In this document: positions 15,376 through 40,791 of the stretch, piece by piece
How the letters are laid out: each line of letters starts with the position of its first letter
Position numbering within the stretch: the first letter of the stretch is position 1
DNA from: a virus
Direction: 5' to 3' (one strand)
Virus record (IMG/VR): IMGVR_UViG_3300042475_004151
DNA length: 64,000 nucleotides
The notes under the pieces: model-generated
What the model saw: the letters and a program-made list of their open reading frames with translations, nothing else
What the model was told of the DNA's origin: nothing
Databases searched by the model: none
Translations under genes and position numbers: made by a program

Positions 15376-16494
15376 TTATTTAATAATTCCAGCTAATTGT
15401 TGCATTCTGCGAACAGCTGAATCGCTTTCTACAATCGGTTGTTTAGGTGCAATTCCTACTGCCTTAGAGGCAAATCCAACTGATTCTCTAATGTTTGACT
15501 TAACTCTACTTGTCAAAGATTCAACTAAAGTTTCATAAATAGTTTTAGCTTCTTTAACATTTGATGCTTTGTCAAGTGATTTTACCACTTTGATTTTTTG
15601 AACTTCACTTAAAGTCTTAGTTTTGAAGATCTTGTTTGTGTAAAGAAGTTTTGCGTTTAAAAGATTAACTTCATTAAGTTCAGATTGTAAAAATCTAATA
15701 GTTCTGATAGCTTCTTCAAGATCTTTTTTGTCTTTTTTAGCTTCTTCTACTTTTTTACCATCTTCTTCTTTGTCTTTTTTCTCTTCAACTGATTTTTTGT
15801 CGTCTTCTTTATCAAGTTCGGCCAAAAGTTCGTCTAAAGAAATAGATTCTTCATCTTCAGTTTCTTCTTTTTCTTCACCAGCTTCTTTTTCTTCACCAGC
15901 TTCTTCTTCTTCACCAGCTTCTTCGCCAGCTTCAAATTCACCACCCATAACGTCTTTTAATACGTCACGAATAATGTCTTTAAGTTCGTCAACTGTGAGT
16001 TCGGTAACTTCGTCGTCGCCTTCTGCTTCATCTAAAGACTCTTCAACTTTCTTTTTGTCGTTGTCTTTTTTCTTAGCTTCTTCAACTTCTTTTTTACCAT
16101 CTTTTTTGTCTTTACCTTCTTCCATTTTATCTTCTTTTTCGTGGCCTTTTTCTTCGGCTTCGAGTTGAGCTAAAATTTCTTCAAGGTCAGTTTCTTCCAT
16201 TTTACCTTCTTCTTCGGTGTTTTTTCCTTCGATTGAGGTTTTTTGCATGGCGGGTCCAAAACCAATTTCGGCTTCATGGCCTTCTTCTGTTTTTTCATAG
16301 CCTTCTTCTTCAACTTTCTTAACTTCATCTTTCATGTCTTCGTCATCTTCCATCTCGTTTAATTTAGTGGAAAGCATAGCCATGATTTGTGGAGTGAAAG
16401 TTTCTTCAAGAGCGGCTTTAGCGTTCGCTACTGCTGCATCACGTACAGATTTAGCGTCAGCAATTGCTTGCTTAAATAATTCTTGATTTGTCAT
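15376..16494 (-). CDS. gp22: Prohead core/scaffold protein (gp22-like)
   Basis: Acidic coiled coil between protease and capsid genes; AIADAKSV..A..NAK.ALEE and LNEVNLLNAKLLY motifs; ends RRMQQLAGIIK. Confidence 0.85.
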   Translation of the reverse strand: MTNQELFKQAIADAKSVRDAAVANAKAALEETFTPQIMAMLSTKLNEMEDDEDMKDEVKKVEEEGYEKTEEGHEAEIGFGPAMQKTSIEGKNTEEEGKMEETDLEEILAQLEAEEKGHEKEDKMEEGKDKKDGKKEVEEAKKKDNDKKKVEESLDEAEGDDEVTELTVDELKDIIRDVLKDVMGGEFEAGEEAGEEEEAGEEKEAGEEKEETEDEESISLDELLAELDKEDDKKSVEEKKDKEEDGKKVEEAKKDKKDLEEAIRTIRFLQSELNEVNLLNAKLLYTNKIFKTKTLSEVQKIKVVKSLDKASNVKEAKTIYETLVESLTSRVKSNIRESVGFASKAVGIAPKQPIVESDSAVRRMQQLAGIIK

Positions 16495-16503
16495 CTTGAA
16501 ATT

Positions 16504-16583
16504 CTCCTTTTGATTGCTTATTAGATTTGGAAAAGCAATATAAGATTGTAAATGTTAATTTAATGAGATATTGGAGATCTCAT
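16504..16583 (-). promoter_or_regulatory. Structured 5' leader of the scaffold/capsid operon (two hairpins plus SD)
   Basis: Sense ATGAGAT-CTCCAAT-ATCTCAT, ATTGCTT-TTCCAAATCTAAT-AAGCAAT, then AAAAGGAG 9 nt before the ATG. Confidence 0.55.
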
Positions 16584-16626
16584 ATTGGGGATGTTAATAA
16601 ATATATGCGGGGGTATATAAAGCGAC

Positions 16627-16658
16627 AAAAATGAAACCTAGCCTTACGGGGCTAGGTT
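16627..16658 (-). terminator. Intrinsic terminator after the protease gene
   Basis: Sense AACCTAGCC-CCGTAA-GGCTAGGTT-TCATTTTT. Confidence 0.75.
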
Positions 16659-39219: not shown

Positions 39220-39941
39220 TTAATAAATTCTTTTACTTTAGTAACAGCTGTAGATGCTGGTGTAAATTTTGGTTTTTGTTTAAGTGCTGATTTGATATCT
39301 TTATTTATTTGTTCAACATCAGCTTTTGATTTAGCTTGTTCTTCAGGTGTTTTTGGTTTACCTTTTGCTTTTGATGTGTCAAAAAATCTACGTTTAATTT
39401 CATTTTCATCAAAATCAATTTCAGCGTCTTTAGGATCATTGTTAATGATAACTAAATTATCACCAAATGCTTGTTGATATGTTTCAATATTATTACTAAT
39501 ATCTCTCCAGGTTCTTAAAACAATACCAGGCATTAATGAACGATCTCTATTAGCATTACGTTCAAGTGATGTTATAGGAGATACATAAATCATAATCATC
39601 ATTGTCTCATATCCTAGTGTTTCTAGTTCTTCTTTCTTTTTGAGAAGTGGTCTAGAAGCCGCTCCAGTACCGTCAATAATAACATCGTTAAGATTAGATA
39701 ATACATCCGTGTATTTTTCTTTAGTTGCTTTTTGAGCTACAGCCATTAATTTAGCTGCTTGAGATAACTGTTCAGGATCAAAATCTTTTTGTTTCATTCC
39801 TATTCCTGATGCTTTAAGTAATTCTTCATAGGTGTCGTCAACATTTATTATTTTAAATTTTGACAATGGTAAAGATTTGGCTATAAATGATTTACCAGCT
39901 CCAGCAGGTCCAGCTAAAAATATTGATTGTGGTGTACTCAT
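39216..39941 (-). CDS. P-loop kinase (zeta-toxin/AAA_33-like)
   Basis: LAGPAGAGKS, INVDD, IIDGTG and LERNANRDR motifs. Confidence 0.8.
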   Translation of the reverse strand: MSTPQSIFLAGPAGAGKSFIAKSLPLSKFKIINVDDTYEELLKASGIGMKQKDFDPEQLSQAAKLMAVAQKATKEKYTDVLSNLNDVIIDGTGAASRPLLKKKEELETLGYETMMIMIYVSPITSLERNANRDRSLMPGIVLRTWRDISNNIETYQQAFGDNLVIINNDPKDAEIDFDENEIKRRFFDTSKAKGKPKTPEEQAKSKADVEQINKDIKSALKQKPKFTPASTAVTKVKEFIK

Positions 39942-40471
39942 TATTTACCTGTTACTACTATTGGTGTGTTAGGAGCAATTAATTCTATTTCTTCTGGTTT
40001 AAGCGAATTGGCTAATTTAGTGTTAAAATCTGCCACATATTTATCTAAATTTAACTCACTTGCTTTATCATAGATTGCTCTTAATTCTTTATTTTTAAAA
40101 CCATCTATATCAATTTCTCCTGAACCATTTAATCCTGGAGATATTTTTACTCCTTCTCCATTTTGAGTTTGTACTATAAGATTATTTCCAACCCATGGTT
40201 TTTTCCATTTATTATCACTTGATTTAATTTGAACTACTAAACCTTTATTTTTATATTTTTTATCCCATAGACTATCACATGATACTCTAATATTTGATGG
40301 TTCAATTTCTAATTTAACTGCTATATTATTAATAAATTTTTCAAGAACAGTAGCAATTTTATCATATAATGCTTGTGTTTCTGATGGTGCTTGAAATGGA
40401 TAAATTTCAGCTTGTCCTTCATTAATTCCAGCTAATTGCCGCATTCTTTTAACTTCATTAAGTTGTTTCAT
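39941..40471 (-). CDS. Putative internal head protein, class A leader
   Basis: MKQLNEVKRMRQLAGINE leader. Confidence 0.75.
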   Translation of the reverse strand: MKQLNEVKRMRQLAGINEGQAEIYPFQAPSETQALYDKIATVLEKFINNIAVKLEIEPSNIRVSCDSLWDKKYKNKGLVVQIKSSDNKWKKPWVGNNLIVQTQNGEGVKISPGLNGSGEIDIDGFKNKELRAIYDKASELNLDKYVADFNTKLANSLKPEEIELIAPNTPIVVTGK

Positions 40472-40506
40472 TATATATATAATTTATCTAGTAGTTTAAT
40501 CATTTA

Positions 40507-40791
40507 TTATTTTACAATAGAAGGTAAATAAGTAGCACCTTTATACCATCTTTTAGAAATTTTATGTTCTTCTCCCTTTTTATCTTTCACTGTAAAAGTT
40601 GATGGATTAATTTTAATAACAGTTCCTATCTGTTTTTCACCTGTTGTTCCTATATTTTGTAAAGGTACATTTAGATAAAATTTTACTTTATCTCCAATTT
40701 TTACATCAAGTGTTATAAAATCTGTTTCTTTAGATTCAATAATAATCCCAGCCAATTGCTGCATTCTTTTAACTTCGTTAAGTTGTTTCAT
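40507..40791 (-). CDS. Putative internal head protein, class A leader, SH3/KOW-like body
   Basis: MKQLNEVKRMQQLAGIIIE leader; VKIGDKVKF...GTVIKIN..TFTVKD. Confidence 0.75.
   Translation of the reverse strand: MKQLNEVKRMQQLAGIIIESKETDFITLDVKIGDKVKFYLNVPLQNIGTTGEKQIGTVIKINPSTFTVKDKKGEEHKISKRWYKGATYLPSIVK

Follow-up and report, generated by a model that had tools for sequence, protein, structure and literature searches.

Putative capsid-targeting leaders of several classes, one copying the scaffold tail, on unrelated proteins of a T4-like phage

Introduction

Why would many proteins with unrelated bodies, encoded in and beside the head genes of one phage, begin with a few recurring short sequences? 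The question is raised by a 64,000-nucleotide stretch of viral DNA (IMG/VR record IMGVR_UViG_3300042475_004151; the window), in which an earlier note, made from the letters alone, had described about 18 such proteins between positions 15,376 and 40,791. The note sorted their N-terminal leaders into five classes, A to E, each containing or ending in [ILMV]-x-E, and proposed that they load proteins into the capsid as in phage T4. Comparing the window with its relatives, we favor, with moderate confidence, an explanation in which the leaders would be T4-type capsid-targeting propeptides that have been expanded and diversified into several types. The Class A leader matches the C-terminal tail of the protein in scaffold position.

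In T4, the capsid-targeting sequence (CTS) of IPI, IPII, IPIII and Alt was reportedly described by Mullaney and Black in 1996 as being removed by the gp21 prohead protease. Among T4 head sequences, gp22, gp21, gp24 and gp67 all start with short pieces ending in [LI]-x-E. The T4 internal proteins (IPs) and Alt enter the scaffolding core by means of short N-terminal propeptides, which gp21 removes after Glu. The CTS has 10 residues, of which 4 and 7 act in targeting and 8 and 10 in processing. The bodies of T-even IPs are diverse and variable, and C-terminal propeptides occur on gp21 and Alt (PMC3012670, PMC9026906, PMC5694885).

Results

All substantial open reading frames (ORFs) of the window lie on the minus strand, as does every window feature described below, and its G+C content is 30%. 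The major capsid protein (MCP), a gp23-like protein of 565 amino acids (aa) (13649..15346; phrog_138, E 1e-68), is most similar to that of Flavobacterium phage vB_FspM_immuto, the nearest cultured relative (56% identity), followed by those of Microcystis phage Mel-JY01 and Rhodothermus phage RM378. Because these are its MCP relatives, we regard the window phage as a distant T4-like myophage. Neither megablast of the region nor tblastn of a Class A protein gave a match among cultured phages. A protease-based scan of viral contigs yielded at least 592 relatives, from which we took 80 loci; 7 further loci were taken around a 506-aa protein of the window (30677..32197). A first clustering used 82 loci and the final tally 88, including the extra loci and the whole immuto genome. 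In our numbering, L001 is immuto, L082 is T4, and L089-L094 are the closest relatives for positions 26-41 kb of the window.

We clustered, all against all, the N-terminal 28-mers and the bodies of the candidate proteins of the 82 loci. The N-terminal clusters joined to the most unrelated bodies were the classes already drawn up in the earlier note, with 20 body families for Class A, 15 for C, 13 for B, 7 for B2 (the note's variant of B), 4 for D and 2 for E, while the structural controls MCP, portal and scaffold had a single body family each. In the final tally, the numbers of unique proteins and body families were 36 and 24 for Class A, 33 and 12 for B, 26 and 12 for D, 20 and 11 for C, 11 and 4 for E, and 30 and 4 for B2. 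Thus, recurring leaders on unrelated bodies were borne out, at 4-24 body families per class versus 1 for the MCP, portal and scaffold. All leaders quoted in the note are present at the given starts on the minus strand. Three of these starts (32543, 34764 and 35773) are ATGs that lie inside longer, mechanically called ORFs; in L091, L093 and L094, the orthologues begin exactly there. The bodies are mostly unrelated, as had been claimed, except that the proteins starting at 19649 and 30652 are similar to about residue 59 (49% identity). We count about seventeen tagged genes in 25 kb, close to the proposed 18.

The leaders are 7-27 aa long and sit at the extreme N-terminus. In alignments, a near-invariant leader is followed by an abrupt loss of similarity right after a Glu, in proteins whose lengths range from 70 to 768 residues. 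Among 1.1 Mb of translated ORFs, the core motifs of Classes B, B2, C and D were strictly N-terminal (18/18, 22/22, 8/8 and 5/5 occurrences, respectively). In Class A, a Glu follows 2-5 residues past LAG[ILV] in 34 of 36 proteins, and the P3 residue is I, L or V in 33 of 34. The same register is visible in all listed members of Classes C, D and E, for which the search patterns required the Glu. The bare motif [ILMV]-x-E, which the note took as the feature common to all leaders, is weak by itself, as its frequency per position is 0.049 in the first 25 residues versus 0.0245 in the bodies, a 2-fold difference; in immuto, its enrichment is confined to the late genes (see below). A search of 5.8 billion sequences with the first 40 residues of the protein starting at 40791 returned the query alone; against a database of this size, a motif of 20 residues is too short for a significant match.

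The Class B core, [FW]L.ENKL, is never internal in 436,000 residues of the clade. It occurs once in T4 gp22, at residues 97-103 (WLAENKL), where a gp21 site is predicted at L-A-E. This comparison is post hoc, and the core (window starts 20496 and 27609) and the T4 segment may represent a shared protease-site or docking element.

The Class A motif recurs at the end of a head protein. The gene between those of the protease and the MCP (15376..16494) encodes an acidic, helical protein of 372 aa in the position of the scaffold, the analogue of T4 gp22. It had no hit in Pfam, PHROG or the PDB, the last searched by profile with the scaffold alignment. As the sequence match to gp22 is weak, the name scaffold rests mainly on gene order and composition; the protein contains 21 [ILV]xE sites, compared to 14.4 expected from its composition. 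A reading ascribed to the note, that this gene encodes the capsid protein, was mistaken, since the gene is in scaffold position and the MCP gene lies just outside the range that the note covered. The SLIE motif that the note saw at the capsid N-terminus is nonetheless there: the MCP begins M....SLIE|S, and L-[IL]-E is kept at residues 7-9 in most of 29 homologues.

The last 19 residues of the scaffold-position protein consist of ..IVE, SD, four variable residues and RMQQLAGIIK, followed by the stop codon, and this is the Class A leader motif. We regard the tail, ..IVE|SD....RMQQLAGIIK (15379..15435), as a candidate docking peptide with a protease site directly ahead. It is kept in 59 of 59 complete homologues and in cyanophage Mel-JY01; it shows no variation at R, L and A, and conservation of the I-V-E Glu is 90% or higher. 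A profile made from the scaffold tails alone was searched against 2,093 ORFs (436,000 residues) with a cut-off of E<0.01. It matched 60 C-terminal tails, 16 N-terminal Class A leaders and one more site 8 residues from a C-terminus; no unrelated internal match was found at this cut-off. The best match to the scaffold-tail profile (E 2.7e-5) was a 94-aa Class A protein of the window (40507..40791). Given the register of the Class A Glu, cleavage there would free a peptide about the size of the released scaffold tail. A complex prediction for the MCP with the 40-residue scaffold tail scored 0.00, with the partner poorly folded, and speaks neither for nor against binding.

The other end of the scaffold resembles a second class. 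In most of the clade, the protein begins M..KD[IL]LKE, followed by AIADAK, a start similar to that of Class D. The word D[IL]LKE was found 18 times at N-termini, those of scaffolds and Class D proteins, and once elsewhere. In L004, L011 and L013 (10627), the protease and scaffold genes flank one for a protein of 263-286 aa that starts as in Class E and ends in a Class A-type ..RLKKLAGL before the stop codon; from its sequence, it appears to be tagged at both ends. The scaffold-position homologue of immuto, gp067 (L001 18725-19966), also ends in this fashion (..RWQKLAGIIK). It is annotated as 'DNA polymerase phi-like protein', which is probably an artefact of its acidic low-complexity sequence.

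These likenesses, of Class A to the scaffold C-terminal tail and of Class D to the scaffold N-terminus of the clade, lend some support to the note's idea of several 'addresses'. In its full form, the leader classes would be separate addresses, with cargo gaining entry to the prohead through imitation of different docking peptides of the core. The receptor for Class A would be that of the scaffold C-terminal tail, probably the shell's inner face; Class D would act at the contact of the scaffold N-terminus, and B/B2, C and E would act at further sites. We hold this only tentatively and think it rather unlikely. If true, the phage would have several loading channels, each saturable on its own, through which to package a large and rapidly evolving group of proteins for delivery with the DNA, and this would be the first identification in a T4-type phage of what a capsid-targeting sequence binds.

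We compared the arrangement of the leader genes among relatives. The head module runs portal, variable leader genes, protease, scaffold, MCP, an order like that of T4 genes 20-67-68-21-22-23. The portal is of the gp20 type (22365..24254; Pfam Portal_T4, E 5e-67) and the prohead protease of the T4 gp21 type (16688..17317; Pfam Peptidase_S77, PF03420, E 1.7e-28). Beside the portal is a conserved protein of 284 aa (21474..22328), present in 80 of 82 loci, with 13 [ILV]xE sites versus 7.5 expected. It is followed by a 327-aa protein (20498..21481), one of two that the note had assigned more loosely to Class C. This one belongs, in diverged form, to a conserved head-module Class C family with homologues in 42 loci, of which those of immuto and others begin MKKSQ...; the other, starting at 63806, found no support. 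A Class B protein of 277 aa (19663..20496) occupies a variable slot of the module: 2-3 kb upstream of the protease, a near-invariant 24-residue leader (L003-L013) precedes bodies of 159-422 aa. Next come a Class A protein of 170 aa (19137..19649) and a 561-aa protein (17310..18995) with a degenerate Class A motif. Homologues of the latter in L003, L006, L008, L009, L013 and L039 begin with a true Class A leader, and homology starts inside the leader region. As a clean leader swap this body was rejected, since the alignment showed the window and immuto copies to carry a degenerate Class A motif behind an N-terminal extension of 17-20 aa.

A second set of leader genes lies at 26-41 kb. A Class B protein of 322 aa (26641..27609) is conserved upstream of the terminase gene, and a Class A protein of 103 aa (30341..30652) adjoins the 506-aa protein (30677..32197; phrog_12709), which has a Class E-like start, MKIKIL...LKE, retained by its orthologues as M.KI.II.S.P[IL]KE. 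Then follow a Class B2 protein of 118 aa (32187..32543), a Class D leader on a basic, DUF5872-like body (122 aa, 32545..32913), a Class E protein of 179 aa (32913..33452), two Class C proteins of 95 aa (33454..33741) and 147 aa (33741..34184), and two Class D proteins of 105 aa (34447..34764; orthologues in L091 and immuto) and 110 aa (35441..35773). A Class E protein of 108 aa (35775..36101) has orthologues in L089, L092 and L093, with an insertion immediately behind the leader. A nucleotidyltransferase-like protein of 654 aa with DUF5661 (37255..39219; Pfam) has a Class D-like start. The start of its Mel-JY01 orthologue is similar and the N-terminus of its immuto orthologue differs; whether the sequence is a leader is uncertain. 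A P-loop kinase of the zeta-toxin/AAA_33 type (39216..39941; Pfam), leaderless in the window, precedes two Class A proteins, one of 176 aa (39941..40471) and the 94-aa protein described above.

The 26-41 kb part of the window is syntenic in L089-L094, yet leader genes have been gained and lost. New Class D genes are inserted in these relatives. In the slot upstream of the 506-aa gene, the B2 leader is kept on at least three different bodies, and in the slot after that gene (window start 30652), L092 has the same Class A leader on another body. The L091 orthologue of the P-loop kinase has an extra ten-residue Class E prefix that the window copy does not have, indicating that a leader was gained or lost on one body. 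Leaders thus become joined to different bodies among close relatives, both by slot replacement and by leader gain or loss, a point that the note had put forward for testing.

Because cassettes are gained, lost and replaced exactly at leader-bounded slots, we considered whether the conserved 5′ ends could be DNA- or RNA-level elements, either homology patches for cassette exchange or translation-initiation regions, with the peptide incidental. AT-rich, Lys-rich starts are common, as this explanation would have it. However, the codons for the invariant leader residues differ synonymously from phage to phage, and variation at third codon positions is no lower than at first positions. We conclude that selection has acted on the peptide and not on the DNA. 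Moreover, the same peptide motif is also found at a C-terminus. We consider a nucleic-acid explanation very improbable. Recombination at leaders could be a secondary consequence, as proposed for T-even IP loci.

A genome-wide leader census was carried out on the complete genome of immuto. Nine of its 12 leader-bearing genes map to the head module and its surroundings (100-126 kb), and three are in the early half of the genome. The earlier note had held that its proposal would fail if the leader motifs were as frequent among replication and early genes. In immuto, N-terminal [ILMV]-x-E relative to the bodies was 2.3-fold in the late half and 0.84-fold in the early/replication half. The motif therefore does not reflect some general feature of N-terminal composition in these phages, and the proposal withstands the condition that the note had set.

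The census also bears on whether the leaders could be uncleaved N-terminal elements with no relation to the capsid, such as degrons, or amphipathic helices that serve oligomerization or the binding of membranes or partners, shared through recombination or convergence of small phage proteins. The three immuto copies among early genes would fit such elements, as would the presence of some leaders on metabolic-type enzymes and the look of the leaders themselves, that of generic amphipathic helices in a proteome rich in K, E, I and L. However, such elements would leave unexplained the identity of Class A with the scaffold C-terminal tail, the constant register of the Glu, with P3 being I, L or V, the strict N-terminal position with conservation that collapses right after the Glu, and the concentration in the head module with enrichment specific to late genes. 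For these reasons, we judge uncleaved elements improbable.

A short word on the coding strand is consistent with late expression of the leader genes. Within the window, 14 of 22 occurrences of TATTTATA are 11-33 nucleotides upstream of gene starts, mostly of structural genes. Positions (all minus) include 63817, 60236, 53828, 42400, 36680, 30676 and 28188, as well as 25882, 24279, 22358, 19006, 13584, 12898 and 12186. The word stands ahead of the terminase, the portal, tail genes and one Class A gene, the 103-aa gene starting at 30652 having its own copy, and ahead of the first gene in the tightly packed run 36652-30677 that contains most Class C, D and E genes. In immuto, 24 of 30 copies of TATTTATA lie within 50 nucleotides upstream of a gene start, versus 6 of 15 for the reverse-complement control. 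These copies are mostly at structural genes, and others precede a Class B gene and an early-half Class A gene. Thus, TATTTATA is a candidate late promoter of this phage group, and its placement suggests that the leader genes are co-expressed late with the head genes. The T4 late promoter TATAAATA was not enriched on the coding strand; its reverse complement, TATTTATA, precedes genes instead.

We characterized the bodies behind the leaders. Searches of Pfam and PHROGs gave almost no assignments and no informative family that would support the note's view of the proteins as effectors, and a protein atlas applied to two Class B proteins gave scores of at most 0.81, which were uninformative. About half of the predicted mature bodies are acidic (isoelectric point (pI) 4-5) and some are basic (pI 9-10). 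Cut sites within the leader bodies are neither enriched nor depleted (64 observed versus 62.8 expected), a density that does not discriminate between fates of the bodies. As the bodies lack families, half are acidic and cut sites are at expectation, they may be injected cargo or degraded core and assembly components.

The second of these fates would make the leader proteins mostly assembly or core components, analogues of gp67, gp68 or minor scaffold, that are targeted to the prohead and then lost at maturation through degradation or expulsion. In the interval between the portal and protease genes, precisely where T4 has genes 67 and 68, there are several leader genes, and many bodies share the strong acidity of the gp67 tail and the scaffold. 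In addition, both the scaffold and the portal-adjacent protein starting at 22328 are enriched in cut sites, and one relative's protein is tagged at both ends. In contrast, the slots are hypervariable among close relatives, with bodies swapped or absent, which is unusual for essential parts and typical of T-even IP loci (PMC3012670). It also counts against this fate that cut sites are not enriched in the leader bodies taken together and that some bodies are basic. We see this as a possible account but not a probable one. It shares the targeting step with the explanation that we favor, T4-type propeptides, and differs from it in the fate of the bodies.

Other genes of the window were also recorded. 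The large terminase gene (24285-25871) lies beside that of the portal. Among the structural and leader genes are those for a PhoH-like ATPase (12207-12881), a FAD/NAD oxidoreductase-like protein (28452-29753) and a pyrimidine-dimer glycosylase-like protein (29738-30241). A TonB-dependent-receptor-like outer-membrane protein with a signal peptide, Plug domain and OMP beta-barrel (43658-45904) is followed by a lipoprotein-like protein (42456-43661), and this pair adjoins primase-like, PD-(D/E)XK and SegE GIY-YIG genes. Tail-fibre-like paralogues (1-13551 and 48160-52039) share M..WKK..VSGS N-termini on differing bodies, and a module of about 100 aa is repeated, with up to 67% identity, in six proteins of these regions.

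Discussion

A model that would accommodate these observations is that each leader docks its protein onto the scaffold/shell assembly during head assembly. For Class A, the docking element would be R-M-Q-x-L-A-G-I, the peptide through which the C-terminal tail of the scaffold itself would be anchored; for Class D, it would be a short amphipathic piece like the scaffold N-terminus, and B/B2, C and E would use other contacts. Once activated, the gp21-type protease would cut after the Glu in [ILV]-x-E. This would separate the scaffold body from its tail (..IVE|SD..) and the leader from each cargo body, and the bodies would stay inside the capsid. By analogy with scaffold tails of other capsids, the tail probably anchors the scaffold to the shell or core; if so, the Glu site just ahead would let the protease release the scaffold, and Class A proteins would occupy the scaffold-tail site and be released in the same way. 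Docking, receptor, cleavage, retention in the virion and delivery into the host are what we infer. Wherever sequence can put the analogy with the T4 CTS to the test, it holds: in the protease, the portal, the position, register and conservation of the leaders, the variable bodies and the clustering at the head module.

Several observations weigh against this explanation. The profile of the scaffold matched T4 gp22 weakly in hhalign (probability 10%, E 0.003), over 30 columns in the invariant block, and the window's own scaffold N-terminus has Gln in place of the Glu that makes the start of the clade's scaffolds Class D-like. The tripeptide [ILV]-x-E is frequent in this K/E/I/L-rich proteome, and the leader bodies are at expectation for it. 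The acidic half of the bodies contrasts with the basic IPs of T4. Some leader-bearing proteins are enzymes of the nucleotide-metabolism type, such as the one at 37255..39219, for which packaging is not obviously useful and whose immuto orthologue is without a leader, and three immuto leader genes are in the early half of the genome. Our literature search found neither virion proteomics nor N-terminal sequencing nor expression data on this phage or its relatives; in particular, it found no proteomics of immuto and no paper on Mel-JY01.

If T4-type targeting propeptides are what these leaders are, a large and mostly uncultured clade (at least 592 contigs, one cultured member) would use the logic of the CTS on a bigger scale and in several versions. 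Since the 1990s, workers have loaded phage heads with foreign proteins by means of the T4 CTS. To our knowledge, its binding partner is still not defined, and the literature on it concerns mainly T-even phages with three or four cargo proteins. With the leaders described here, the CTS mechanism becomes a testable question of scaffold peptide mimicry. The leaders would also form a set of natural loading tags for capsid engineering, and the roughly 17 rapidly exchanging proteins per genome would be candidates for early functions delivered with the DNA, for example counter-defence.

The closest known system is the T4 CTS itself. In both, a short N-terminal propeptide ends in [LI]-x-Glu, a gp21-family (S77) protease is encoded beside the scaffold and MCP genes, and one tag is found on sequence-unrelated bodies that vary between related phages. 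In both, too, the tag resembles the start of the scaffold, which is M.KEQLIAE in T4 gp22 (a relation also noted in PMC9026906) and here M..KD[IL]LKE, compared with Class D. With the T4 CTS peptide itself (MKTYQEFIAE), no sequence homology is detectable, and the resemblance is at the level of a pattern, M-K...hydrophobic-hydrophobic-x-E, in peptides too short for a test of significance. In contrast to T4, with its single leader type and 3-4 tagged genes, the phage described here has at least five types and about 17 tagged genes, the latter within 25 kb. Class A, at about 20 aa, copies the scaffold C-terminal tail, for which T4 has no counterpart, as the gp22 C-terminus is unrelated. Many bodies here are acidic, and the system is known here from sequence alone.

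Among giant phages, phiKZ, 201phi2-1 and SPN3US have many head-internal proteins that are cut after Glu by a gp21-related protease, and paralogues share N-terminal propeptides (PMC5694885, PMC7411985). However, those propeptides are mostly longer than 100 aa and have an A/S/G-x-E motif, whereas the leaders described here have 7-27 aa and [ILV]-x-E, as in T4. In our literature search, we came upon no publication that describes several leader classes, or mimicry of the scaffold tail, for a T4-type phage.

The tail itself has parallels elsewhere. The M-site tail of the herpesvirus scaffold/protease and the scaffold C-termini of P22 and phi29 are coat-binding tails, released by a maturation protease, and the P22 scaffold C-terminus has been engineered to load cargo. 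As in these, the window phage has a conserved terminal scaffold peptide with a protease site just upstream that is portable to other proteins. Unlike in these, the portability is natural, the peptide is at the N-terminus of the cargo with its own cut site, and binding to the MCP is our proposal. Encapsulin targeting peptides are likewise short terminal tags that bring diverse cargo into the interior of an HK97-fold shell, with one tag serving many cargo types. In contrast to the leaders, they usually sit at the C-terminus and no protease cuts them off; their sequences are unrelated to those of the leaders, and encapsulins have neither scaffold nor DNA. The principle of the CTS is already known; what this locus adds is several types of leader, some 17 genes that bear them, and a copy of the scaffold tail.

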